Positions 128 to 13,265 of a stretch of DNA of 13,556 nt are shown in pieces (the stretch's first letter is position 1; each line of letters opens with the position of its first letter). This DNA is from an uncultured Leptospiraceae bacterium (GTDB lineage: Bacteria; Spirochaetota; UBA4802; UB4802). The notes under the pieces are model-generated. The model saw only the letters and a list, made by a program, of their open reading frames with translations, searched no databases and was not told where the DNA came from. The DNA lies in the NCBI GenBank assembly GCA_964345775.1, contig CAYFSO010000084.1, positions 1-13,556 of the forward strand. The letters are read 5' to 3'. Both the position numbers and the translations under genes were made by a program.

Positions 128-2296
128 TTAACTGATGAAAAGCATTTCCCAGAACCTGGGAAGCGGCCAGATGGAATCATCAATGTACCCTTCGAGTTCA
201 TCAACGTCTTCGCGCATCTTTTCCATTAAGGTCTTGATCTCGTAGCAGAAGTAACAGGCGCTGTCCTCTTCATCCTCGATGGAATGTGCGTGTTCCAAAC
301 GCTTTTTCAATTCTTTCACGTTTTTAAGGATATTGTTGATAAGGGATGCCACGGTGGCAAGAAGCTCTTTCTGTTCGCCCGCTTCCGCGTCCTTGCCAAG
401 TATATCAAACAGTTCATCCAGTGATGTTGCAAGTTCCTTCTGGTATCGAATGGCTGCCGGTATAACTGATGCTGATACCATCTCAACCAGTGTTTTCGCC
501 TCTATGTCAAGCTGCTTGATATAACGTTCCATGCGTATGTTGTACCGTGATCTAAGCTCAACGGGTGTGAGGACGTTATACTTTTCAAAAAGCTTGATAG
601 CCTTATCAGTTACCAGGTCTAGCAGGGCTTCACAGGTTGCCTTCTTGTTTGGAAGACCCCGTTTTTCAGCCTCCTTCTCCCATTCCTTTGAGTAGTTATC
701 TCCCATGAAAAGCACCGGCTTAACAGTTGAGATCTCTTCCTTGAAAACCTCCAGCGCAGCCTTGTTGACGTCACCGCCCTTCGATTCGATCTTATCAGAA
801 AGATAATCCAGGCTTTCGGCCACAATAGTATTGAGCACCGTTGCGGGGAAGGATATGGAATGTGATGAGCCAACCGCCCTGAATTCGAACTTGTTACCGG
901 TAAAGGCAAACGGGGATGTCCTGTTCCTGTCGGTATTGTCCTTGCTGAGTACCGGCAGCGTGTTGAGCCCCAGGTCGATGATGGCACCGTTAGTAGCATC
1001 GGTGATCTTGCCCTGCTCGATGTCGTCAAGTATGCCGGTAAGCTGTTCGCCCAGGAAGACCGATATGATGGCAGGTGGCGCCTCGTTGGCCCCCAGCCTG
1101 TGGTCATTACCTGATGATGCAACAGAGGCCCTCAGTATGTCCGCGTGATAAAACACCGCGCGTATGGTGGCGATGAGGAACATCAAGAACTGGATGTTGT
1201 CCTGCGGTGAATTACCGGGATTCAGCATGTTCCCGCCAAGGTCGTCCGACAATGACCAGTTGAGATGTTTACCTGAACCGTTGATCTCTGCAAAAGGTTT
1301 TTCATGAAGCAGTACCGACAGATCATGCCTTGATGCAACACTCTTGAGTATTTCCATCACAAGCTGGTTATGATCAACGGCGATATTGGCTTCTTCAAAT
1401 ATTGGAGCTATCTCGAACTGGCTTGGTGCCACCTCGTTGTGCCTTGTCTTGGCCGGTATGCCCAGCTTGTAAAGTTCCTCTTCCGCGTTATGCATGTACG
1501 AGATCATGCGTTCCTTGATGCTGGCGAAGTAATGGTCTTCAAGCTGCTGGCCCTTGGGTGGTGCCGCGCCAAGTACGGTCTTTCCGGCCAGGAGAAGATC
1601 CTGTCTCTTGTAATAGAAGTCCTTGTCTATGCAGAAATATTCCTGCTCGGCCCCAAGGGTTGCTATGACCCTGCTTACCTTCTTATTGCCAAGCAGTTTC
1701 AATGCCCTTATAGAACTTTCATTTATGACCTTTATTGATCGTAACAGTGGTGTCTTCTTATCCAGCGCGTCCCCGGTGTATGAAAGGAACACGGAGGGGA
1801 TACACAGTGTAGACCCGATCCCGCTATTCAATATAAACGCGGGGCTTGAAGGGTCCCACGCGGTATACCCACGGGCTTCAAATGTTGAACGGATACCGCC
1901 GCTTGGGAAGCTTGACGCGTCCGGTTCACCCTGTACAAGCTGCTTGCCGGAAAACCGTTCAATGGGGATACCGTCATCCATCATCTCCAGGAAGGAATCG
2001 TGTTTCTCGGCAGTGTTCCCGGTCATGGGCTGAAACCAGTGGCAGTAATGGGTGGCTCCTTTCCCGATTGCCCATTCCTTCATGGCGTGGGCGACCGCGT
2101 TTGCCACTTCCTCGTCCAGCTTTTCGCCTTCCTCTATGATCCGTGCCAGTTTTTTGCTCAGGTTGGCAGGTAGTTTATCCTGGATCACCCTGAAATTGAA
2201 GGTGTCTTCACCATAATAATTCGAAACGGGAATATTCTTTTCCCGCATTATGGGATATTCACGTTCTGATGCTGGAATCCTTGAGTCTCTTTTCAT
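128..2296 (-). CDS. glnN: Glutamine synthetase type III (GlnN), ~722 aa
   Basis: Length (~720 aa) and N-terminal region (…VSNYYGEDTFNF…LPANLSKKLARI…) fit the large GSIII family recalled from Bacteroides/cyanobacteria, and conserved GS catalytic-domain blocks are present. Start moved from the track's GTG (2317) to ATG 2296, which sits 4 nt after an AGGAGG SD (2301-2306). Confidence 0.88.
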   Translation of the reverse strand: MKRDSRIPASEREYPIMREKNIPVSNYYGEDTFNFRVIQDKLPANLSKKLARIIEEGEKLDEEVANAVAHAMKEWAIGKGATHYCHWFQPMTGNTAEKHDSFLEMMDDGIPIERFSGKQLVQGEPDASSFPSGGIRSTFEARGYTAWDPSSPAFILNSGIGSTLCIPSVFLSYTGDALDKKTPLLRSIKVINESSIRALKLLGNKKVSRVIATLGAEQEYFCIDKDFYYKRQDLLLAGKTVLGAAPPKGQQLEDHYFASIKERMISYMHNAEEELYKLGIPAKTRHNEVAPSQFEIAPIFEEANIAVDHNQLVMEILKSVASRHDLSVLLHEKPFAEINGSGKHLNWSLSDDLGGNMLNPGNSPQDNIQFLMFLIATIRAVFYHADILRASVASSGNDHRLGANEAPPAIISVFLGEQLTGILDDIEQGKITDATNGAIIDLGLNTLPVLSKDNTDRNRTSPFAFTGNKFEFRAVGSSHSISFPATVLNTIVAESLDYLSDKIESKGGDVNKAALEVFKEEISTVKPVLFMGDNYSKEWEKEAEKRGLPNKKATCEALLDLVTDKAIKLFEKYNVLTPVELRSRYNIRMERYIKQLDIEAKTLVEMVSASVIPAAIRYQKELATSLDELFDILGKDAEAGEQKELLATVASLINNILKNVKELKKRLEHAHSIEDEEDSACYFCYEIKTLMEKMREDVDELEGYIDDSIWPLPRFWEMLFIS

Positions 2297-2440: not shown

Positions 2441-2513
2441 GATGATAAAGCTCCTGTTTCACTGTTTATTTAACATTTATGTAATATATCCTCCATTTGC
2501 TCGTAATTTTGAA

Positions 2514-2540
2514 CATCCCCCACGTTGTACATGGGGGATG
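2514..2540 (-). terminator. GC-rich hairpin (stem CATCCCCCA / TGGGGGATG, 9-nt loop), 10 nt after the amt stop. Possible terminator or partial attenuator between amt and glnN.
   Basis: 9-bp stem with 5 consecutive G:C pairs. The trailing U-tract on the minus strand is weak (UUCAAAAUU), so termination may be partial. Confidence 0.4.
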
Positions 2541-2549
2541 CTGTATTGC

Positions 2550-3995
2550 CTATTTCAATGTGAACGATTCGAAATCAGGGTATGCTTCCATGCCGTGTTC
2601 GGCGATATCCAGTCCCCGCAATTCCTCGTCGCGGCTTACCCGTATGCCTACAACAGCATTGACGATCACCCATATAACCCAGCTGAGTATAAAGGTAAAT
2701 GCGCCAACTGATACCACTCCCACTATCTGGTCTGCAAAAGAATTAATGCCACCTCCGTAGAAGAGTCCCAGCGGTGGCTGGCCGTCGCCGCCCGCAAGTG
2801 GTGCCGAGGCAAAAAGGCCTACTGCCAGGGTTCCCCAGATCCCGTTTATGAGGTGTACCGAAATGGCACCTACGGGATCATCTATCCTCCACCTGTCAAA
2901 AGCGATAACAAAGACAACAACCAGTATGCCGCCGATGAAACCAATGATCACAGAGGCCCCGGCGCTTACGAAGGCACATGGGGCGGTTATTGCCACCAGT
3001 CCGGCAAGTGAGCCGTTCAATATCATGGAAAGGTCTGGTTTTCCAAGTGCCAGCCAGGCTGTCACGGTGGCTGCGATTGCTCCCGATGCCGCAGCCAGGT
3101 TGGTGGTAACCGCGATCCTGGCGATATCATTGGGAGATGCTGACATGGTTGACCCGGGGTTGAAACCGAACCATCCGAACCACAGTACGAACACGCCAAG
3201 TGTTGCCAGTGTCATGCTGTGCCCGGGAATGGGGTTTACCGACCCGTCCGGGTTATACTTGCCGATCCTGGGGCCAAGCACAAGGGCTCCTGCCAGCGCA
3301 GCCCAGCCGCCAACTGAATGCACCACCGTTGAGCCGGCGAAATCCCAGAACCCCCTTTCCTGCAGCCATCCGCCTCCCCATATCCAGTGACCGGTGATGG
3401 GGTACATGATGCCGACAAGCATTGCCGAAAAAATTATATACGAGATGAACTTTATCCGTCCACCAACCGCACCGGACACAATGGTTGCTGCAGTTGCGGC
3501 GAAAACCAGCTGGAAGAAGAACTTGGCAAAAAGCGGTACCGATGCCCAGCCCATTGCCGAGTAGACCCCCTCGTATGCTTCTCCCACAAGGGGACTGTTG
3601 TCAGCTCCACCCAGCATCCAGAGACCCCTGTAACCAAGGAATCCGTTGCCGTCCCCGAACATGAGACCCCAGCCGATAAACCAGAATGCTATGGACGCAA
3701 TTGAGAAAACTATGAAGTTCTTGGCACTTACGTTTACAGAGATCTTTGCAGGCTGCAGGCCTGTCTCTACCATGCCGAAACCAAGGTTCATGAAGAATAC
3801 CAGTATTCCCGCAAGAAGTACCCAGATGGTATCGGCAATAACCGTGCTGTTCTGCATGATCACCGTTAACTGGTCGATCTTTTCCATAACTTCAGGTGTT
3901 ATTGTGGCAGAAGGGGCAACTTCTTCTGCGATTACCATTCCGGCACCAGTTAGAACCAGAAGTGCCGTTGCCATTAGTATACGTACAATTCTCAT
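2550..3995 (-). CDS. amt: Ammonium transporter (Amt/AmtB family), 481 aa, with N-terminal signal peptide
   Basis: Multi-TM protein with hallmark Amt motifs (…GAVAERIKF-like 'GAVGGRIKF', '[26 protein letters not shown]', 'FGFNPGS'). AGGAGG SD lies 7 nt upstream of ATG 3995. Only 14 nt separate it from the glnA stop. Confidence 0.9.
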
Positions 3996-4009: not shown

Positions 4010-5476
4010 TTATGCTTCGTAGTATAGAGAGTATTCCCAGGGATGAGGCCTGAGAGATACCTGGTCAATTTCGCTGATACGCTTGAATTCTATGTAGCTT
4101 TCGATCAGCGATCTCGAGAAGACGTTCCCCTTCAGCAGGAACTCGTGATCCTGTTCAAGGCCGTCTATTGATTCCTTGAGGCTGCCGGGTGTGGAGCGAA
4201 TAAACATCTTCTTCTCCGGCGGCAGTTCGTAAATGTCATCATCGATTGGATCGGGCGGCTCGATCATCTTTTCGATACCGTCAAGACCTGCCATGATCAT
4301 GGCGGCGAAAGCAAGGTAGGGATTCACCGTTGAATCCGGACACCTGAACTCTATCCGCTTTGCCTTTTCGCTTTCGCTGTACATGGGTATACGTACCGCC
4401 GCAGAACGGTTTCGTGCCGAGAACACCAGGTTGATGGGTGCCTCGTATCCCGGAACAAGTCTCCTGTAAGAGTTAGTGGTAGGGGCGGCGAAGGCAAGTA
4501 CCGCTTCTATATGGGCAAAGATACCGCCAATGAAGTAGCGTGCCTCGTCGCTCAGGTCGGCGTACTGGCCGAAATCGTAGAACATGTTTTTGCCGTCCTT
4601 CCACAGGCTTATGTGGGTGTGCATGCCGGAACCGTTGTCCATGAATATGGGTTTCGGCATGAAGGTTACTGTTTTGCCGTACCTGTGGGCCACGTTCTTT
4701 ACAAGGTACTTGTATTTCAGCAGCGTGTCCGCCTGTTCAACCAGCTCTTCAACATCCAGCCCGATCTCGGTCTGCCCGGCGGTGGCAACCTCGTGGTGAT
4801 GCAGGTTGGCCTGTACGCCGCAGCTTCGCAGTACCTCAACCATCTTTGACCTGAGATTGTGCAGCTGGTCGTGGGGTGCCACGGGGAAATACCCCTGCTT
4901 GTACCCGATCTTGTATCCCAGGCTGCCTTCTCCCTTCTTGGCGGTGTTCCAGTATCCCTCGGCGGAGTCCACCTCGTAGAAGGCCCTGTTCTGGGTCTGC
5001 TCGTAGGACACGTGGTCGAAGATGAAGAACTCCGGCTCAGGTCCGAAAAAGGCGGTGTCGGCAATACCGGTTGAACGCAGGTAGTCGATGGTCTTGAATG
5101 CCACGTACCTGGGGTCCTTTTCATACCTTGTCCTCTTCACTGGATCCACGATGTCACAGAAAAAGCTCATGGTCCTGTGATCGAAGAAGGGGTCAATAAA
5201 GGCGGTGCTGGGGTCAGGCCGCATCAGCATATCGCTCTGGTTGATGGACTGGAATCCCCGTATGGAGGAACCGTCAAAACCGGTACCAACGGTGAACAGG
5301 TCCTCGTCCGCCTTTTCCGCCGTTTGCGTGTAATGGTGGATCCTGCCGAACAGGTCGCAGAATTTCATGTCCACGAACTCTATGTTCTTTTCCTTGATAA
5401 TCTGCAGTATCTCGGAGATGGTTATATGCTCGTTTCGTTTTTTTACCGTGTAGATTTCATCAAATATGGCTTCCAT
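4010..5476 (-). CDS. glnA: Glutamine synthetase type I (GlnA), 488 aa, with a ~20-aa N-terminal extension relative to E. coli GlnA
   Basis: Collinear with E. coli GlnA blocks recalled from memory (FVD-KF-D, DGSSI, GPEPEFF, HHHEVA, KPxFxDNGSGMHxHxSL, [28 protein letters not shown], RIEFRxPD). The Tyr in 'DIYELPPE' corresponds to the adenylylation-site Tyr (E. coli NLYDLPPEE). SD AAGGAGAAGG precedes ATG 5476. Confidence 0.9.
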
Positions 5477-5509: not shown

Positions 5510-6787
5510 TCATTCCAGTTCCTTCTTGACGGGAGCGGTTTTGCCGCCGTCGGCTATACCCGTGAGGTCAACCCCGGTTGCGTTCTTGATCTGCTCAAGG
5601 AAGGTAACCACGCTTGAAGTGACGTCTCCCACGTGATTTGGAATGCCGCCGTTACCCATCACCACCAGTTTCTCCACTTTCAGGTTGTCGGCGATGACAC
5701 CGGAGATGCTGTCAACGATGTTGGGCAGTATGTGCAGCATGAAAAGTTCCCTGTTGCTGCCGTCGCCCCATTCTTCCTTCATCTGCTTGACGGCGTCTGC
5801 CATGGCAAGTCCCTGTTCTTTCAGGTACGAAGCCTGTCCGAATGCCTTCAGCTCGTCCGCCTTCTTCCCGGCCTCGGCCGGTATGACAAGCTCGGCGTGG
5901 TATTTCCTGGAGTTCACGTCCTTGCGGATCTCTTCAAGGTCCTTTTGCTGGCTAAGCTCTTCAAGCCTGCGTGAATACTCTGACTTCATCTCAAGCTTGT
6001 TGGTCTGTTCGTACAGTTCAGCCTTGCGGTTGCGGTAACCGGTCTCGTATTCCTTTATGGCCATCTTCGACTTGTACTCAACATCAGACGCCTTCTTGAT
6101 GGATTCGGACTCAACGATCTTCGCTTCTGATTCGGATTGTGCTTCCTTGATACGGGCGTCCCTCTGTACCACCGCGTTTCTCTGGCGTCCAACCGCTTCC
6201 AGGTAGCCCTGTCCGTCCCTCAGGTCCTCGATCTTTATTGAGTCAAGGGTGAAACCAAGCTTGTTCAGCTCAATGCCTCCCTTTTCATATACTTCTTCTT
6301 CAAGTTCGATACGCCTGTAGTTGGCATCTTCCGGGGTGTATCGCGCAAGGATACCCCGCATCACACCTTCAAGGGTGCTCTTGGCGATGGTCTCTATCTC
6401 GTGGGGAGCCTTGCCAAGCAGCCTCTCAACCGCGTTTTCAAGCCCGCCGTTTTCCCTGGATGCTATCTTGATATGGGCGATGGCGGTTATATCAAGGGGT
6501 ATCATACCCTCGGACATGGCCCGTGATATCTCGAAATCCAGGGGAATAGTTGCAAGTGACAGGCGGGAGACCTTTTCCAGTATGGGTGTTCTCAGTCCCC
6601 AGCCACCCCGTATCACGCGGTACCCCACCACGTCACCGGACTTAAGCTTTCGCTTTCGTCCCGAAAAAATCAATATTTCATTTGGTTCACAGATCTTCAG
6701 GTTGGCCTTCAGGTATAAAAGAAAAGCCGCTATGGCCATTATGATTAATGAACCAGCAAGTGCCCAGTCAATTGATCCTGTATTCAT
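5510..6787 (-). CDS. Flotillin-family / SPFH (band-7) domain membrane protein, ~425 aa: N-terminal TM helix, SPFH domain, long E/K/A-rich coiled coil, flotillin-like C-terminus
   Basis: N-terminal hydrophobic helix (ALAGSLIIMAIAAFLLYL), an SPFH-like core, a ~150-aa heptad-like charged coiled coil (EAQSESEAKIVESESIKKASDVEYKSK…), and C-terminal 'KLVVMGNGG' typical of YqiK/FloT-like flotillins. Start set to ATG 6787 (GGAGG SD 5 nt upstream); the track's ATG 6799 lies inside that SD. Gap to the glnB stop is 29 nt and to the glnA start 33 nt. Confidence 0.78.
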   Translation of the reverse strand: MNTGSIDWALAGSLIIMAIAAFLLYLKANLKICEPNEILIFSGRKRKLKSGDVVGYRVIRGGWGLRTPILEKVSRLSLATIPLDFEISRAMSEGMIPLDITAIAHIKIASRENGGLENAVERLLGKAPHEIETIAKSTLEGVMRGILARYTPEDANYRRIELEEEVYEKGGIELNKLGFTLDSIKIEDLRDGQGYLEAVGRQRNAVVQRDARIKEAQSESEAKIVESESIKKASDVEYKSKMAIKEYETGYRNRKAELYEQTNKLEMKSEYSRRLEELSQQKDLEEIRKDVNSRKYHAELVIPAEAGKKADELKAFGQASYLKEQGLAMADAVKQMKEEWGDGSNRELFMLHILPNIVDSISGVIADNLKVEKLVVMGNGGIPNHVGDVTSSVVTFLEQIKNATGVDLTGIADGGKTAPVKKELE

Positions 6788-6816: not shown

Positions 6817-7158
6817 TTATCCAATAGCCCTCGAGCCGCGTTCACCGGTTCGAATGCGTATACACTCATCGATGGGAATGACAAATATCTTTCCGTCTCC
6901 GATCTCACCGGTCTTGGCACCGCGCGTGATTGCCTTGATGGTGGGCTCCACGTAATCGTCGTTAACTGCAACTTGAAGCTCCACCTTCTTTAATAGCTTG
7001 ATCTCGTGCTTGATGCCACGGTACGTTTCGGGATAGCCTTTCTGTCGTCCGGCACCGATAGAGTTGACAACAGTCATGAGATTAACGCTGGCCTCGTTCA
7101 GTTCTCTCTTCACATCGGCCAGCCTCTCGGGTCGAATAACTGCCACAACCAGTTTCAT
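6817..7158 (-). CDS. glnB: Nitrogen regulatory protein PII (GlnB/GlnK family), 113 aa
   Basis: MKLVVAVIRPE… start typical of PII. T-loop GAGRQKGYPETYRG retains the Tyr51-equivalent uridylylation residue. The C-terminal 'IRIRTGE' PII signature is present. GGAGGAGCTG-ATG SD. The track's longer ORF (start 7188) is rejected in favour of the SD-preceded ATG 7158. Confidence 0.9.
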   Translation of the reverse strand: MKLVVAVIRPERLADVKRELNEASVNLMTVVNSIGAGRQKGYPETYRGIKHEIKLLKKVELQVAVNDDYVEPTIKAITRGAKTGEIGDGKIFVIPIDECIRIRTGERGSRAIG

Positions 7159-7452
7159 CAGCTCCTCCTTCGAAATTAAATGATTCATGTTTTCGTTTTC
7201 TGAAAATAACGCGTTATATGCAATCTGAAACGAAAATGATTGATATAATTATATTCAATACCATCACCGGTGATTGTCAATTTTTGAAATTGAGAAGGGG
7301 CATGTTTCGGGTTTATTTAACAAGCGTGTAATTTGTTCGTAACATGTTCGTAATAAACGGGCTTTTTGCGCAGATGAATTGACATAATTGTATTTTATTC
7401 ATAACGTGTGTAAAAATATCCAGGTATACTGGAAAATGGAACATGTATTGAA
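7159..7452. promoter_or_regulatory. AT-rich divergent control region between glnB (minus) and rsmA/ksgA (plus). It contains a 12-bp perfect palindrome ATCACCGGTGAT (7263-7274), an inverted repeat TCAATTT-TTG-AAATTGA (7277-7293), the 9-mer AAATTGACA on the minus strand (7275-7283), direct repeats TGTTCGTAA at 7334-7342 and 7345-7353 (11-bp period), and an inverted repeat TTTTCGTTT (7200-7208) / AAACGAAAA (7238-7246).
   Basis: All repeats read directly from the sequence. No canonical sigma-54 (GG-N10-GC) element was found. The sigma-70-like candidates are imperfect (TTGACA-21-TATAAT on the minus strand; TTGTAT-17-TAAAAAT on the plus strand for ksgA). Confidence 0.4.
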
Positions 7453-8280
7453 ATGAACACGGGCGAATTAAAAGAACTGCTGCGTTCCGAGGGCATTCAT
7501 CCCAGTAAGAAGCTGGGACAGAACTTTCTTGTGAACCATGGAATGGTGGAGAGGATCGTTGAGTCATGCAACCTGGGAAGTGCTGACAGGGTGCTCGAGA
7601 TAGGCCCCGGCGCGGGTGCGCTTACGGGACTGCTTGCAGAGAAAGCAGCGCACGTGACCGCCGTTGAGATCGACTCGGGGCTGGTGCGCCTGCTGCGTAA
7701 ACATTTCGGTGACAGGGAAAACCTTGATATTCTGCACGCTGATATATTGAAAACAGGTATACCGGGTGATGTGAACAGGGTTATAGGAAACCTTCCGTAT
7801 TACTGTTCCTCGGAGATCCTTTTCCGGGTGGCGGCACAGGAATCGGTGACCATGGCATGTTTCATGCTGCAGAAGGAGATGGCCCAGCGCATTGCGGCAG
7901 AACCGGGGGACAGCAATTACGGTGCACTTACCGTGAACCTGAAGCTCTATTTTGACGTGGAATATCTCTTTAACATTGACAGGCAGTCCTTTTTTCCGCA
8001 GCCGGATGTTACCTCGACGTTTATAAAGCTTACCAGGATAACACGTGGGCTGAACGAAGAGGAGAAGAAGTTATTTCATGAGCTGGTAAAATCCGCCTTC
8101 TGGGGCAGGCGAAAGACCATAAAAAAGGCCCTTACCGATTCTCCCCACCTTGATTGGACCGTGGATGATGTGGCACAGTTGCTGGAATGGGCAGGCTATG
8201 AAGAAACTGACAGGGGAGAGACACTTGAGATGGAGGACTTCATGTTGCTGGCCCGTGCCGCCTGGGACATGGAACTGTGA
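7453..8280 (+). CDS. rsmA: 16S rRNA (adenine1518/1519-N6)-dimethyltransferase RsmA/KsgA, 275 aa
   Basis: KsgA/Erm-family motifs 'LGQNFL' and the SAM-binding 'VLEIGPGAGALT', and a conserved 'NLPY' catalytic motif (GNLPYY). Confidence 0.9.
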   Translation: MNTGELKELLRSEGIHPSKKLGQNFLVNHGMVERIVESCNLGSADRVLEIGPGAGALTGLLAEKAAHVTAVEIDSGLVRLLRKHFGDRENLDILHADILKTGIPGDVNRVIGNLPYYCSSEILFRVAAQESVTMACFMLQKEMAQRIAAEPGDSNYGALTVNLKLYFDVEYLFNIDRQSFFPQPDVTSTFIKLTRITRGLNEEEKKLFHELVKSAFWGRRKTIKKALTDSPHLDWTVDDVAQLLEWAGYEETDRGETLEMEDFMLLARAAWDMEL

Positions 8281-8281
8281 T

Positions 8282-10678
8282 ATGACTGAAAAGACCATTG
8301 AAAAGATATTATGCAGGGTGGAAAAGCCCGCCCGGTACATGGGGGGTGAGTTGAACAGCCGTGTAAATAAAGAGGCACTGGTGCGGATGGGGCTGTGCTA
8401 TCCCGACCTCTACGAGGTGGGCATGGCCAATAACGGCATACAGATACTCTACGACGCGGTAAACGGCATGCAGAACGTGGCCTGTGAGCGGGTTTTTGCC
8501 GTTGCACCCGACCTTGAAAAGGCCCTGCGTGAAGAGAATCTTCGTTTATATACACTTGAAACGTACACCCCCCTCAAAGATCTTCACCTGCTGGCATTCA
8601 ACGTGGCCCATGAGCTCCTTTACACCGGCATTCTGCAGGTGATGGACCTGGGTGGCATACCCCTGCGGTCGGCAGACCGAAAAGAGGAACACCCCGTCAT
8701 CATGGCCGGCGGCGAGTCCGTATCCAACCCGGCCCCCCTTATGCCCTTCGTTGACGCATTTTTCATGGGTGACGGGGAGGAGGGCATAGTTGATATATGC
8801 CGGGTGCTGCTCAATGCAAAAGAAGAAGGCCTTTCCCGTGACAGCCTGCTGCAGCGGCTTGCCGGCATAGAGGGGGTGCTGGTACCCGGCAAAAACAGCA
8901 GGGTGCGAAAGCGGGTATTCAGGTCAACAACAGGCTCTGACCCCCTGAAGCCGGTGGTCCCTTCCATCAGGATCACCCAGGAGCGGGTGGTGGTGGAGGT
9001 AAACCGGGGCTGCCGCAACCTCTGCAAGTTCTGTCACGCCGGCTACTATGAGCTTCCCTACAGGAAATTCTCGTGGGAATGGGCCCGTGACAGGGTGTTT
9101 GCCATGCTCGATAACACCGGCTACGACGAGGTTTCCTTCGCCTCCCTCTGCCTGAACGATTACCGCCACCTGGTGGAGCTACTCAACGGGGTACTGCCCG
9201 GTCTCACCGGGCGGGGCGTGTCCGTTGCCCTGCCGTCCCTGCGGGTGGAACCCGAAACGGTGCCGGTGATCGAGCTGGTGTCCGACGTGCGAAGGGCCTC
9301 GCTCACCTTCGCGGTTGAGTCGGCTACCGACCAGCTGCGCAGGATCGCCTTCAAGCGGCTGCATACCGCTGATATAATATCCATTATACAGGAGCTTTAC
9401 AACCGTGGCTGGCAGCGGGTGAAGCTCTATTTCATGATCGGCCTGCCCGGCTACCGTGACCATGACGAGGCGGACGATATTATTGAACTGTTGAACGAGA
9501 TATACAGCATCGGAAAGAACCGGCTGCAGCTGAACGTCACCGTGTCCCCCTTCGTGCCCAAGCCCCATACCCCCTTTCAGCTGGAGGAACAGGCCAACAC
9601 CGCCTACCTGCGTGATACAATACAGCGCATAAAACGGGGTGTGCCCCGAAAGATCCAGGTGAAAAATCACGACGTGTACCATTCCCTGCTGGAGGGGGTG
9701 CTCTCCCGCGGTGACGGCAACCTTGCCGACGTAATAGAGGATGCCTACCGGGCGGGAAGCAGGCTTGACTCGTGGTCGGAGTATTTTTCTTTCGCAACAT
9801 GGGAGCAGGCCCTTGAAACCCGTGTCCCCGGCTGGCAGGAGTACCTCAACAAGCGTATGCAGGACGGGAACCCGTGGGACGTGGTTGAAACCGGCTTCGA
9901 GAAGCTGGTGGCGGCAAAAGGCCGCTCAACCTGGGACGGAAACTCCCTGCCCCGGTCATTCAACACAGGAAAGGACACGCTGAACAAAGAGGCGGTGCAG
10001 CAGGCCATGCGAAAGTTCGAGGAGAAGTACCGGGTTGAAGGATGCGTGCGCCTGTCACTCTCCAAGACCGGCATGTCCCGTTTTATACCACATATCGACT
10101 TCATGGAAATACTGAAGCGGGCACTTCGCATGGCGCACGTGCCGGTGTCCTTTACCCGGGGATTCAACAAGCGTGAGCGTATATCCATGGGGTACGCGCT
10201 GCCCCTGGGTACCGAAAGTGAAGCAGAATTCTGCGACGTGGAGCTGTACCGGTCAATAGACCCGAAATCGCTGCCGGGCCTGTTGAACCCCCTGCTTCCA
10301 CATGGTATAATGGTGACCGATGCCGGCATGGTGGAGGACGGGTCATCCCTTACCGCCGACGTGTCATACATGGAGTACCTGGTTACCACGGAAGACGCGG
10401 GTACGGCCAGGAAACTTGTCTCGGGCATGGAAAAAAGACCCTCATTTGATAAGAAAACCAAAAAAGGGTTGAAGACGGTGGCCTTCGATGATGCAATACT
10501 GCACTGGGGCCCGGTAGAAGGCGGTGTGCTGCTGCATCTCCCGGCAGGTCTTTCACAGTCAATACGTGCCGACAGCATCGTGCTGCAGGTGACAGGGCAT
10601 GATGATCTTTCGGCATTCAGAATAATAAAAAGAGCCCAGTTCCGAACATCGGACAGGGGCCCTGCTCAGGTCAGTTAA
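8282..10678 (+). CDS. Fused radical SAM protein: N-terminal TIGR03960-like radical SAM domain (CxxxCxxC = CRNLCKFC) plus C-terminal DUF2344/TIGR03936-like domain, ~798 aa
   Basis: N-terminus 'EKPARYMGGE' typical of the TIGR03960 family as recalled. The radical-SAM cysteine triad is at 'NRGCRNLCKFCHAGY'. The C-terminal ~200 aa (RLSLSKTGMSRFIPHIDFMEILKRALRMAHVPVSFTRGFN…) resemble DUF2344 proteins, which are usually encoded by a separate adjacent gene. Start set to ATG 8282, one nt after the ksgA TGA; the track's extension to 8150 overlaps ksgA and is rejected. Confidence 0.78.
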   Translation: MTEKTIEKILCRVEKPARYMGGELNSRVNKEALVRMGLCYPDLYEVGMANNGIQILYDAVNGMQNVACERVFAVAPDLEKALREENLRLYTLETYTPLKDLHLLAFNVAHELLYTGILQVMDLGGIPLRSADRKEEHPVIMAGGESVSNPAPLMPFVDAFFMGDGEEGIVDICRVLLNAKEEGLSRDSLLQRLAGIEGVLVPGKNSRVRKRVFRSTTGSDPLKPVVPSIRITQERVVVEVNRGCRNLCKFCHAGYYELPYRKFSWEWARDRVFAMLDNTGYDEVSFASLCLNDYRHLVELLNGVLPGLTGRGVSVALPSLRVEPETVPVIELVSDVRRASLTFAVESATDQLRRIAFKRLHTADIISIIQELYNRGWQRVKLYFMIGLPGYRDHDEADDIIELLNEIYSIGKNRLQLNVTVSPFVPKPHTPFQLEEQANTAYLRDTIQRIKRGVPRKIQVKNHDVYHSLLEGVLSRGDGNLADVIEDAYRAGSRLDSWSEYFSFATWEQALETRVPGWQEYLNKRMQDGNPWDVVETGFEKLVAAKGRSTWDGNSLPRSFNTGKDTLNKEAVQQAMRKFEEKYRVEGCVRLSLSKTGMSRFIPHIDFMEILKRALRMAHVPVSFTRGFNKRERISMGYALPLGTESEAEFCDVELYRSIDPKSLPGLLNPLLPHGIMVTDAGMVEDGSSLTADVSYMEYLVTTEDAGTARKLVSGMEKRPSFDKKTKKGLKTVAFDDAILHWGPVEGGVLLHLPAGLSQSIRADSIVLQVTGHDDLSAFRIIKRAQFRTSDRGPAQVS

Positions 10679-10750: not shown

Positions 10751-11515
10751 ATGAGCAAGTTATGGTATGATCTTGAAGACAAGGTTGCAGTGGTTACCGG
10801 CGGCAGCCGGGGTATCGGACTGGAGATAGCACGTGAGCTTTTAAACCAGAAGGCGAAGGTGGTCATCTGCGGACGAAAGCAGGAGGGCCTCGACGGGGCG
10901 GCAAACGAACTGAAGGGGGGCGACTCCCTGCTGACAGTACAGGCGCATATTGCCAAAGAAGAGGACGTTGATAAACTGTTCGACGCCGCACTTGATAAGT
11001 TCGGCAAGGTTGACATCCTCATCAACAACGTGGGCATGAACCTTCCCACCGGGGGCATTGTTGACGTTGAACTGTCCCAGTGGCAGAAGATCCTGGAATC
11101 AAACCTCACCGGTACCTTCCTGTGTTCACGCAGGGCGGGTAAGATCATGCGTGACCAGAAGTTCGGCAAGATGGTCAGCGTGTCGTCGGTTGCCGGTCAC
11201 AAGGCGTCACCGGGCATGAACGTGTACGGTATTGCCAAGGCGGGCATCGAGATGATGATGAAGAACATGGCCTTTGAGCTTGCCGGCTACAACATACAGG
11301 TGAACACGGTGGCCCCCGCCATGGTGCGCACCGATTTCAGCAAGCCCTTCTGGTCAAACGACGAGATACACGACATGGTGGTAAAGAACATCCCCATGGG
11401 CAGAATAGCCGAGGTTGAGGACGTGGTGAAAGTTGTGCTCTTCCTGGCCTCTGACGGCTCGTCCTTCGTAACCGGCCAGACCATCATGGTAGACGGCGGG
11501 TCCATGGTGATATAA
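10751..11515 (+). CDS. SDR-family NAD(P)-dependent oxidoreductase (FabG-like short-chain dehydrogenase), 254 aa
   Basis: TGGSRGIG cofactor motif, NNVG, catalytic S…YxxxK (YGIAK), and C-terminal 'IMVDGG'. GGAGGA SD lies 5 nt upstream. Confidence 0.85.
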   Translation: MSKLWYDLEDKVAVVTGGSRGIGLEIARELLNQKAKVVICGRKQEGLDGAANELKGGDSLLTVQAHIAKEEDVDKLFDAALDKFGKVDILINNVGMNLPTGGIVDVELSQWQKILESNLTGTFLCSRRAGKIMRDQKFGKMVSVSSVAGHKASPGMNVYGIAKAGIEMMMKNMAFELAGYNIQVNTVAPAMVRTDFSKPFWSNDEIHDMVVKNIPMGRIAEVEDVVKVVLFLASDGSSFVTGQTIMVDGGSMVI

Positions 11516-11654: not shown

Positions 11655-13265
11655 TCAGTGTCTCTGTGGCGAACCCCATTTCAGCTCCATGCAGTCATTC
11701 CCATCCATGTACTTCACCGGGAATTCTTCTGAGTCGGCGGCGAATACCGGTGATTTTCCCCCGGTATCGCCGAGGGCCCTGCGTATCTCCGCCGGGTGGC
11801 GAACCCCCTGTATGGAGGCGGGGTAGCGCATGTTGCCGGTTCCCTGTATCCAGTCCATCCGCAGGCAGTCCCGGAAGAAGGTGTACTGCGCGGGGAATTT
11901 TTCACCAATGTACTCAAGCAGGCCGCCTGAAAGCACACCCCCGTCCTTCTCACTGGTGGACCATCCTCTTGACTTCCAGAAAGCGGCAAGCCTTCCGTAC
12001 ACCTGGAAGGGATCCTCGTTCGAATGCAGGTTTTCAAGCTCCGGCAGGGTGATGGAAAAATGCCCGGAGTTGAAGAGGGAGTTTACAAGTCCTTCAATAT
12101 GGTGCAGCATATCCATTTCTTCACTGTTTATCCACGGGGTTTCCCGTATTTCATAGGGAGGTTCCGGTGAATACCGCATGGAAAGGGCCTCTGCCTGTTC
12201 ACGCATGGCTGTCCCCGGCAGCAGTTTCAGAAAACCCAGCTGCAGGTGATGGGGCCCTATGCCGTAGAGCACGTTGAACGAACTGGCAAGGGACTCAAGG
12301 GTGTCATGGGGAAGTCCCGCCATGAGGTCAAGGTGTACATGAATGCGGGTATGTTTTACCAGGTGCCGTACCCCGTCAAGATGGCTCTCCTTTACGGGGG
12401 GACGTGAAACGGCCTCCAGGGCCCGGTTGTTCAGTGATTGTATCCCAATCTCGAACTGAAACAGCCCGGCAGGCACCTTCTCAAGCAGCCGCAGGTCTTC
12501 ATTGTCAAGCAGGCCGGGATAGATCTCGAAGTGGAACCGTGTACCGGGGGCCCTCTCCAGCAGGTATTGCCATATGGCGCGGGCGTGTTCTTTGTTTGCG
12601 TTGAAGGTGCGGTCTACCAGCTTTACCACGTCGGGGTGCATCGCCAGCAGGCTGTCAATCCCGTCCTTCACCCTGTTCAGGTCTTTGAACTGCAGCTTCT
12701 GGTCTTCCCGGGAGGAGATACAGTAGCCGCACCTGAAGGGGCATCCCCGGCTGGTCTCGTAATACACGTAGCGGCGGGAAAGGCGCCCGGCGTCTTCGGG
12801 TATGTAGGGGCAGGGGATGTCATTGAAGTGGGGGTTTGCCCGGTGTATGATCTTTTCGTCCACCCTGAACCGGTTCTCTGCCAGGCGGTAAAACCCCGCC
12901 TCGCCGGGACCGCAGACAATGCAGTCGATATAAGGATGACGCTCAAGCCAGCGTTCGGGGTTGTAGCTCACCTCAGGGCCGCCAAGCACGATGACCGGCT
13001 TCGGAGTAAGCCCGGCAAGAGCGGGCAGTAGCTTTTCCATGTACCCGGAATTCCATATGTATACCGAGAGGGCCACCACATCCGCACCCAGATGTGCTGC
13101 CTCACGAATGATGTCATCACGCGGTGCCTTGATGGAGTACTCCCGTATAACGAAGTTGTCCCCCGTGCCGGCGCAGTAATTACGCAGGTAATACAGGGCC
13201 GGGTTGGAGTGACTGTACCGGGCGTTCACGGCCAGCAGGAATACGGTTTGGGGTTTGGTGTTCAT
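11655..13265 (-). CDS. B12-binding-domain radical SAM protein (class B-like) with DUF4080-like C-terminal region, 536 aa
   Basis: N-terminal Rossmann-like B12-binding region (LLAVNARYSHSNPALYYL… VVALSVYIWN), radical-SAM triad 'SRGCPFRCGYC', and a long uncharacterised C-terminal extension. No obvious SD. A small ORF lies 37 nt upstream on the same strand. Confidence 0.8.
   Translation of the reverse strand: MNTKPQTVFLLAVNARYSHSNPALYYLRNYCAGTGDNFVIREYSIKAPRDDIIREAAHLGADVVALSVYIWNSGYMEKLLPALAGLTPKPVIVLGGPEVSYNPERWLERHPYIDCIVCGPGEAGFYRLAENRFRVDEKIIHRANPHFNDIPCPYIPEDAGRLSRRYVYYETSRGCPFRCGYCISSREDQKLQFKDLNRVKDGIDSLLAMHPDVVKLVDRTFNANKEHARAIWQYLLERAPGTRFHFEIYPGLLDNEDLRLLEKVPAGLFQFEIGIQSLNNRALEAVSRPPVKESHLDGVRHLVKHTRIHVHLDLMAGLPHDTLESLASSFNVLYGIGPHHLQLGFLKLLPGTAMREQAEALSMRYSPEPPYEIRETPWINSEEMDMLHHIEGLVNSLFNSGHFSITLPELENLHSNEDPFQVYGRLAAFWKSRGWSTSEKDGGVLSGGLLEYIGEKFPAQYTFFRDCLRMDWIQGTGNMRYPASIQGVRHPAEIRRALGDTGGKSPVFAADSEEFPVKYMDGNDCMELKWGSPQRH

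Follow-up and report, generated by a model that had tools for sequence, protein, structure and literature searches.

What is a flotillin doing among the genes of ammonium assimilation? In a 13,556-nucleotide (nt) stretch of DNA from an uncultured Leptospiraceae bacterium (GenBank assembly GCA_964345775.1, contig CAYFSO010000084.1; hereafter, the window), a gene for a flotillin-family protein stands between the gene for a PII regulator and those for glutamine synthetase (GS; glnA) and an ammonium transporter (amt). A flotillin clade and a PII-Amt-GS operon are each of a known kind; what appears to be new is their linkage. On balance, we lean to the view that this flotillin is an integral, co-expressed member of a conserved PII-flotillin-GS-Amt module, in which it would act as a cytoplasm-facing scaffold that organizes Amt with PII and GS.

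A four-gene linkage and its limits

The gene set of the window was read and translated from the minus strand, and families were assigned with Pfam and NCBIfam profile hidden Markov models (HMMs). On the minus strand, four genes follow one another head to tail in the order PII, flotillin, glnA, amt, with a hairpin directly 3' of the last:

6817-7158, minus strand: PII gene, 113 residues, Pfam P-II
5510-6787, minus strand: flotillin-family SPFH gene, 425 residues, Pfam Band_7
4010-5476, minus strand: glnA, type I GS, 488 residues, Pfam Gln-synt_C and Gln-synt_N
2550-3995, minus strand: amt, ammonium transporter, 481 residues, Pfam Ammonium_transp
2512-2542, minus strand: G+C-rich hairpin of 14 bp directly 3' of amt, from RNA folding

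Pfam E-values are 1.1e-16 for Band_7, 6.7e-25 for P-II, 3.5e-130 for Gln-synt_C, and 3e-118 for Ammonium_transp (395 bits), and both glnA (TIGR00653 GlnA, 640.9 bits versus a cut-off of 429) and amt (TIGR00836 amt, 406.7 bits versus 343) score above the NCBIfam cut-offs. The PII-flotillin, flotillin-glnA, and glnA-amt gaps are exactly 29, 33, and 14 nt, the same values as had been given in a previous reading of this DNA made from the letters alone (the sequence-only reading), and, as also claimed there, each of the four start codons has its own Shine-Dalgarno site ahead of it, in every case of the GGAGG type. The true start of the PII gene is the ATG at 7158, with GAAGGAGGAG ahead of it, and the start at 7188 in the list of open reading frames (ORFs) is wrong; the flotillin start has GGAGG upstream and yields an N terminus that agrees with the MNTGS of its homologs.

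Folding of the three internal gaps is no more stable than that of shuffled controls, and a consensus scan of the window returned promoter-like and terminator-like sites no more often than in shuffles, the minus-strand terminator-like matches being few and consisting of weak stems within coding sequence. No promoter or terminator is predicted inside the unit by the consensus scan or by RNA folding, and gaps so short and free of structure leave no room for one; co-transcription of PII, flotillin, glnA, and amt is predicted. The hairpin that follows amt has a folding energy of −23.2 kcal/mol (z = −4.62, with none of 200 shuffles equally stable) and is the probable end of the transcription unit; its tail, UUCAAAAUU, has no canonical U-tract, which is why the terminator scan missed it. 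The sequence-only statement that no terminator occurs before the end of amt therefore stands for the interior of the unit, and the terminator after amt needs the qualification that it is a hairpin without a canonical U-tract.

A genome scan with one genome per species gave 330 flotillin relatives, of which the loci of the best 80 were fetched and 8 metagenome loci added; gene order and linkage were counted on 83 non-duplicate related loci, with PII, GS, and Amt located by tblastn with the window's proteins. A locus was counted as a module if its flotillin was at least 38% identical to that of the window and had PII, glnA, and amt on its own strand, no more than 6 kb away. All four genes are found within 6 kb on one strand in 71 of the 83 loci, and all but one of the other 12 are cut by contig ends, the exception (L058) having a 1.6-kb gap of unassigned content between PII and flotillin. 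Nearly every flotillin at 38%–89% identity adjoins PII, glnA, and amt on the same strand; co-occurrence with gln and amt genes, which the sequence-only reading had left to a neighborhood search to establish, is almost without exception.

Gene order varies, with AMT-PII-GLNA-FLOT in 47 of the 83 loci, PII-FLOT-GLNA-AMT (the order of the window) in 17, AMT-PII-FLOT-GLNA in 3, and GLNA-AMT-PII-FLOT in 1; in four further loci, one of these orders is accompanied by an additional glnA, alone or with an additional PII, and the remainder are partial or extended variants, nearly all of them cut by contig ends. In every order the flotillin gene lies downstream of PII, and in three of the four the two are direct neighbors; amt stands next to PII in most loci, and the gaps between module genes are mostly 7–60 nt. 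ORF clustering of 80 loci returned only four conserved families, present in 80, 75, 74, and 69 of the 80, and no fifth conserved gene.

The closest relatives (88%–89% flotillin identity) are metagenome-assembled genomes (MAGs) labeled uncultured Leptospiraceae, and the probable source of the window is accordingly an uncultured representative of the Leptospirales. Homologs at 68%–71% identity on three contigs keep the order PII-flotillin-glnA-amt amid entirely different flanks, and those at 46%–53% identity are still linked, in the orders glnA-amt-PII-flot and amt-PII-glnA-flot. Carriers in the genome scan are labeled Spirochaetota, Desulfobacterales, Syntrophales, Gemmatimonadota, Acidobacteriota (Vicinamibacteria), Chlamydiota, and Phycisphaerales, i.e., at least six phyla (Spirochaetota, Desulfobacterota, Gemmatimonadota, Acidobacteriota, Chlamydiota, and Planctomycetota), and the names KSB1 and Sedimentisphaerales occur among the protein-search matches. 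From this recurrence of the four-gene set, the flotillin clade appears to be dedicated to ammonium assimilation.

The partners themselves are not always of the same subfamily. In Desulfobacterales the linked GS is a distant paralog with 37%–39% identity to the GS of the window (36%–39% when Desulfobacterota and Chlamydiota are taken together: L021, L024-L027, L029, L037, L039, L041, L043, L044, L046, and L052), and in Syntrophales the linked Amt is only 33%–36% identical to that of the window (L057, L059, L062, L063, L068, L072, L074, L078, and L081). Different GS and Amt subfamilies have thus probably been swapped into the same module, and the persistence of the linkage through such swaps suggests that it follows function rather than the inheritance of one block.

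Where the link stops was determined by an exhaustive search of 1.84 billion cluster representatives, in which the nitrogen-linked clade collapses to a few 50%-identity clusters and other flotillin clades come next, at 32%–37% identity. In the 39%–40% range, a Rhodothermales genome (L089) has the arrangement amt-PII-[195-residue protein]-flotillin with no glnA, and two Bacteroidota-like contigs (L090 and L091) have only a gene of ∼200 codons and the flotillin, with no nitrogen genes; the clades at 32%–37% identity have operons of a ∼200-residue protein and two Band_7 proteins, again without nitrogen genes. The link fades at 39%–40% and is gone at 32%–37% identity, and is therefore a property of one well-bounded clade. 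The small gene (∼195–225 codons), which has no Pfam match, lies directly upstream of the flotillin gene at the following positions:

L089, 7377-7964: small gene upstream of the flotillin
L090, 7303-7953: the same
L091, 7354-7959: the same
L092, 4717-5388: the same
L093, 6393-7004: the same

The hallmark operon partner of SPFH2 proteins is a YuaF/YqiJ-type NfeD-like gene (Hinderhofer et al., 2009; PMC2636767). No NfeD-like partner was found by Pfam in the window or among the conserved ORF families of the 80 loci, in contrast to the FloT and YqiK operons. The small gene, present in the neighboring clades (32%–40% identity) and absent from the nitrogen-linked one, may be this NfeD-like partner, and its absence from the latter appears to reflect the loss of what is usually the small partner of the flotillin.

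The flotillin protein and its relatives

The family assignment made in the sequence-only reading is borne out by HMMs, by sequence matches to solved structures, and by the predicted fold. Band_7 (PF01145) matches residues 37-223 over profile positions 3-175 of 176 with 61.8 bits, above the curated threshold of 23.6. The FloT model (NF058507) is the sole family match in the NCBIfam search, and its 131.8 bits fall far below the equivalog cut-off of 700, so the protein is a flotillin-family member and not a FloT ortholog. All five matches in a sequence search of the Protein Data Bank (PDB) are flotillin-1 or flotillin-2 (E = 6e-32 to 9e-9), human flotillin-1 being the best, and the Joint Genome Institute (JGI) annotation of the homologs is "flotillin." In a Foldseek search with an AlphaFold2 monomer model, the top matches are chains of the human flotillin complex (409–431 alignment columns, E = 4e-17, 24% identity), followed by prohibitin, HflK/C, stomatin, erlin, and vault; matches solved with membrane clients include HflK/C-FtsH (7wi3) and stomatin-aquaporin (9zd2). 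At the family level, the protein belongs to the flotillins (reggie-like, SPFH2).

The model has a helix at residues 8-29, an SPFH domain at 37-191, a helix of 146 residues at 195-340, and further helices at 343-369 and 385-404, i.e., the domain order anchor, SPFH, long first coiled coil, second coiled coil, and C-terminal domain, the last ending in KKELE. There are no Lys or Arg residues in positions 1-7 and seven in positions 27-50, a placement that, by the positive-inside rule, would put the bulk of the protein in the cytoplasm; a single N-terminal transmembrane helix would thus anchor the flotillin, with the SPFH domain and the long helices on the cytoplasmic side. By analogy with the family, it would form a large oligomeric ring or dome on the membrane.

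The eukaryotic flotillin-1/flotillin-2 complex (PDB: 9BQ2 and 9L3G) is both the best sequence match of solved structure and a full-length fold match, and has the same domain order, at an identity of only 24%. Human flotillins are described as having five domains and as forming a 44-mer dome on the cytoplasmic leaflet, which defines a 30-nm membrane disc and has been proposed to sequester membrane proteins. The first coiled coil of the window flotillin is ∼146 residues long versus 189 in the eukaryotic protein, and with a single flotillin gene the assembly is presumably a homo-oligomer, as opposed to the 1:1 hetero-oligomer of eukaryotes. Eukaryotic flotillins have a lipid-modified anchor, whereas the window protein is predicted to have a true transmembrane helix. 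In its N-terminal anchor, cytoplasmic bulk, and comparable length, it resembles the SPFH2 proteins FloT/YuaG and YqiK.

At the extreme C terminus, a tail of the form (L/V/I)P-K-K-E-L-(E/D/G), encoded at 5510-5524 in the window, recurs in Spirochaetota, Gemmatimonadota, and some unclassified lineages, and a different tail, ARGPLGHKGH, is common to the Acidobacteriota flotillins; the (P)KKEL-type and ARGPLGHKGH tails are lineage-specific conserved tails. The (P)KEL(E/D) tail is confined to about a quarter of the loci and was rejected as a basis of specificity for being too rare. A second candidate, a clade-specific C-terminal docking motif LEQ-K-x-x-TG-x-D, was also rejected, as the helix is found in a neighboring clade that has no nitrogen link.

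Control of the module, its PII protein, and its flanks

An exact sigma-54 pattern (TGGCAY-n5-TTGCW) was searched for on the plus strand of 1.3 Mb of related loci, and 20 matches were found where ∼1.2 would be expected by chance over the whole set. Of these, 15 are near the start of a module, 14 of them upstream and 1 lying 27 nt inside the predicted first gene of L059. The distance to the first module gene is 37–137 nt in 13 loci (among them L011, L016, L021, L025, L031, L037, L039, L041, L062, L074, L078, and L081) and 230 nt in one more; the lineages are Spirochaetota, Desulfobacterales, and Syntrophales, and no related locus has a sigma-54 promoter directly ahead of the flotillin gene. In the window, a search for TGGCAC-n5-TTGCW with up to two mismatches gave 8 matches versus 7.85 expected, none of them on the minus strand upstream of PII, and a sigma-54 promoter was therefore rejected there. 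The clade of the window would thus not be sigma-54 driven, unlike many of its relatives.

The upstream region of the window has two other features:

7317-7354, minus strand: four direct repeats RTTAM with an exact 11-nt period, ATTAC-n6-GTTAC-n6-ATTAC-n6-GTTAA
7275-7280, minus strand: TTGACA, a −35-like box ∼37 nt downstream of the repeats

Three such repeats in a row (RTTAM-n6-RTTAM-n6-RTTAM) occur 12 times in 2.6 Mb of loci, in all 12 cases 180–237 nt ahead of the first module gene of a Spirochaetota locus (besides the window, in L001/L012, L002/L019, L009, L013-L015, L017, and L020). In L001, a gene of the OmpR type (Trans_reg_C) lies directly upstream of the module. The repeats resemble the direct-repeat sites of OmpR-family regulators, e.g., the GlnR boxes of actinomycetes, and could be where a winged-helix activator of the OmpR type binds. 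TTGAC stands at the same relative place in related Spirochaete loci (the window, L009, L010, L012-L015, and L017-L019 side by side) and could tentatively be a −35 box, for which the −10 is not clear and which the consensus scan missed. With sigma-54 in other lineages and RTTAM repeats in that of the window, the same module appears to be wired to different regulatory systems, and the prediction that it is a single nitrogen-controlled unit that includes the flotillin is supported by these upstream sites.

Several other candidates near the start of the unit were considered. No Rfam family reaches its gathering score anywhere in the window, and a riboswitch or leader RNA upstream of PII was rejected. 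A consensus sigma-70 match at 7414-7387 is not relied on, its −35 box being unconserved in the relatives at 88%–89% identity. A perfect 9-bp inverted repeat (7190-7198/7228-7236, TTTTCGTTT / AAACGAAAA) lies ∼30–80 nt upstream of the PII start at 7158; it is not conserved in L009 or L017, and its conservation is not evident in the relatives at 88%–89% identity.

The PII protein is itself unusual. The window protein matches P-II (PF00543) over its full length with 87.8 bits, and its 101–102 bits against the NCBIfam PII models are below the equivalog cut-offs of 181–202; the label glnB given in the sequence-only reading is accordingly right as to the PII family and does not hold at the level of the GlnB equivalog. 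In an alignment of the T-loops of more than 80 module PIIs, these proteins, that of the window included, keep R47, the residue that plugs AmtB, and have LLKK in place of FLPK after the T-loop. Position 51, numbered against E. coli GlnK, is Tyr (the uridylylation site) in canonical PIIs and His in the window protein; most module PIIs have His, Gln, Glu, or Thr there. The Gemmatimonadota module PIIs have lost an RQK motif that belongs to the ATP/2-oxoglutarate site. Two Desulfobacterales loci (L039 and L044) have a second, canonical PII (GRQKGHKEIYRGAEY) beside the module PII. Judged from these alignments, the module PIIs are a divergent clade of their own.

Compared with the glnK-amtB and glnA operons, the module thus shares the classical trio of sensing, uptake, and assimilation (PII, Amt, and GS), R47, and, in many lineages, sigma-54 promoters; it differs in having the flotillin as a fourth conserved gene and a PII with an altered T-loop and no Tyr51, and, in the window, in that PII is parted from amt by the flotillin gene and glnA.

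Further genes of the window lie on either side of the module:

128-2296, minus strand: type III GS (GSIII), Pfam GSIII_N, Gln-synt_C, and Gln-synt_C-ter
7453-8280, plus strand: rRNA adenine dimethylase (RsmA/KsgA), Pfam, divergent from the operon
8150-10678, plus strand: radical SAM protein, Pfam Radical_SAM_N2 and DUF2344
10751-11515, plus strand: short-chain dehydrogenase, Pfam
11655-13265, minus strand: B12-binding radical SAM protein with DUF4080, Pfam

The GSIII gene begins 253 nt downstream of amt, past the hairpin at 2512-2542, so that two GS genes of different type stand one after the other at this locus. The amt-then-GSIII arrangement is kept in L009 and L017 with a gap of 343 nt, and in L020 GSIII is upstream of the module on the opposite strand. 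By Pfam, none of the four genes between 7453 and 13265 is nitrogen-related. With the TTG start listed at 8150, the radical SAM gene would share 131 nt with the RsmA gene, and its real start is probably further downstream.

Roles proposed for the flotillin

As a scaffold for Amt, PII, and GS, the flotillin would, like other SPFH proteins, build a large homo-oligomer, ring- or dome-shaped, on the cytoplasmic side of the membrane and mark out a patch that holds Amt trimers. The patch would keep the PII regulator and GS beside Amt, such that ammonium entering via Amt could be sensed and assimilated on the spot under nitrogen limitation. This mechanism is proposed from the fold, from SPFH-client assemblies, and from a link between a flotillin and an ammonium transporter in plants. 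The sequence-only reading had suggested, along similar lines, a membrane microdomain scaffold for the AmtB-PII complex or a membrane-tethered GS. HflK/C-FtsH and stomatin-aquaporin-1 (PDB: 7WI3, 7VHQ, and 9ZD2) show an SPFH protein with a specific membrane client, the mode proposed here, and are significant fold matches at 12%–18% sequence identity; HflK/C differs from the window flotillin as predicted in being a periplasm-facing hetero-oligomer with a protease as its client. In Arabidopsis, AMT1;3 partly co-localizes with Flot1 nanodomains, knock-down of Flot1 alters the ammonium-triggered removal of AMT1;3 from the membrane, and the link responds to ammonium and to a GS mutant (PMC8644385). 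The plant system, in which the link comes from microscopy and knock-down, is a eukaryotic endocytic shut-off that involves neither an operon nor a PII protein. Stomatin loss in overhydrated stomatocytosis, with its connection to the Rh-associated ammonium channel, is background that we do not use as evidence.

A number of points weigh against a scaffold of this kind. Gene linkage is a sign of shared function and identifies neither the contact partner of the flotillin nor a closed cage. Confidence in the AlphaFold2 model is moderate (mean predicted local distance difference test score of 72.5 and predicted template modeling score of 0.43, with the last ∼60 residues below 50), and the model, being a monomer, carries no information on oligomer size. 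Because the LEQ-K-x-x-TG-x-D helix is common to the neighboring clade without nitrogen genes, no clade-specific docking element is identified. In L008 and L030 the flotillin gene is 0.9–1.3 kb away from the other module genes. Mirror-tree correlations between distance matrices do favor the scaffold, being higher for pairs with the flotillin (FLOT-AMT 0.76, FLOT-PII 0.74, and FLOT-GLNA 0.67) than for those without it (0.54–0.61), but since they include shared phylogeny this signal of co-divergence is suggestive only. Finally, a set of 5.8 billion proteins and the genome scan gave only MAG and metagenome names, with no cultured carrier among them.

The flotillin could instead be a membrane receptor or regulator of the divergent PII and not a scaffold for Amt, i.e., a sequestration switch like AmtB-GlnK with a dedicated sink, on which PII would dock or from which it would leave according to 2-oxoglutarate/ATP status, setting the amount of free PII for Amt and GS. 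The module PIIs, with their own clade and non-canonical T-loop next to the canonical second PII of L039 and L044, would fit such a role, as would the position of the flotillin gene always downstream of PII and mostly adjacent to it, the FLOT-PII correlation, and the Rhodothermales locus L089, where amt-PII stays with the flotillin in the absence of glnA. However, the commonest gene order (47 loci) puts glnA between PII and the flotillin, the correlation with Amt is at least equal, and no PII-binding motif was identified in the flotillin. We consider a PII receptor unlikely, and it overlaps with a scaffold for Amt, PII, and GS without excluding it.

A more general role, in which the flotillin maintains the membrane during nitrogen starvation (fluidity, lipid domains, and less back-leak of NH3) and is co-regulated with the other genes without specific contact, strikes us as rather unlikely. 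Bacterial flotillins are, in the part of the literature covered, mostly treated as general organizers of membrane domains and fluidity, and futile NH3 cycling is a recognized cost of Amt-driven uptake (bioRxiv 10.64898/2026.05.09.723968). Against this, co-regulation alone seldom holds a gene in an operon that has undergone four rearrangements, is spread over six phyla, and has exchanged its GS and Amt for paralogs, and the nearest flotillin clades, which would be expected to share generic roles, have no nitrogen linkage.

Improbable, too, is a function in quality control or turnover, with the flotillin as an adaptor for a membrane protease, through which Amt or membrane-bound GS would be degraded or protected as the nitrogen status changes. 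Bacillus flotillins are reported to work with FtsH, SPFH relatives solved with FtsH are among the fold matches (7wi3 and 9cz2), and in plants Flot1 has a part in clearing AMT1;3 from the membrane when ammonium is high; but no protease gene (FtsH or NfeD/ClpP type) is conserved in or beside the module in the 80 loci, and HflK/C faces the periplasm, whereas the flotillin is predicted to face the cytoplasm.

We give a similarly low probability to a closed flotillin dome that encloses Amt trimers, PII, and possibly a GS dodecamer as a membrane-attached micro-compartment for ammonium assimilation. If such a dome existed, incoming NH4+/NH3 would be trapped beside GS before it could escape again, with PII gating the channel from within; no bacterial flotillin before it would have had a genetically defined cargo, and the SPFH cage would form a metabolic compartment of a new type. 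Chance insertion of an unrelated flotillin into the nitrogen operon of one lineage, compatible with the window taken alone, is left with a negligible probability by the neighborhood survey, in which 71 of 83 loci from at least six phyla have all four genes in several orders and between different flanks, ruling out chance adjacency.

The sequence-only reading knew of no characterization of this architecture, and we likewise found none: searches of full-text literature gave no link between a bacterial flotillin or SPFH protein and glnK, amtB, or glnA, although subscription journals are thinly covered in it and a prior description is possible, and a systematic survey of prokaryotic SPFH operons from 2009 (PMC2636767) makes no mention of ammonium or nitrogen. 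In the one paper that has flotillin, GlnK, and AmtB together, flotillin is only an unrelated assay example, and literature matches on Flavobacterium and picocyanobacteria are irrelevant to a flotillin-nitrogen link.

What bacterial flotillins do, and what lies in or next to SPFH cages other than HflK/C-FtsH, is a long-standing open question, one reason being that the genes of flotillins do not as a rule point to a specific client; this is true of the eukaryotic flotillin genes, and no dedicated client set has been defined for FloT or YqiK. In the present case, an entire flotillin clade is bound by genomic linkage to Amt, PII, and GS, three proteins that are well understood, which defines a candidate client set for a bacterial flotillin and reduces the question to four defined proteins. 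For the PII-Amt-GS core, the flotillin is a conserved fourth component in at least six phyla, all of them abundant in sediment, soil, and marine settings, and its PII partner there is of a clade without the canonical modification site. The parallel with plant AMT1;3 and Flot1 hints that the coupling of flotillins to ammonium transporters may be ancient or recurrent.

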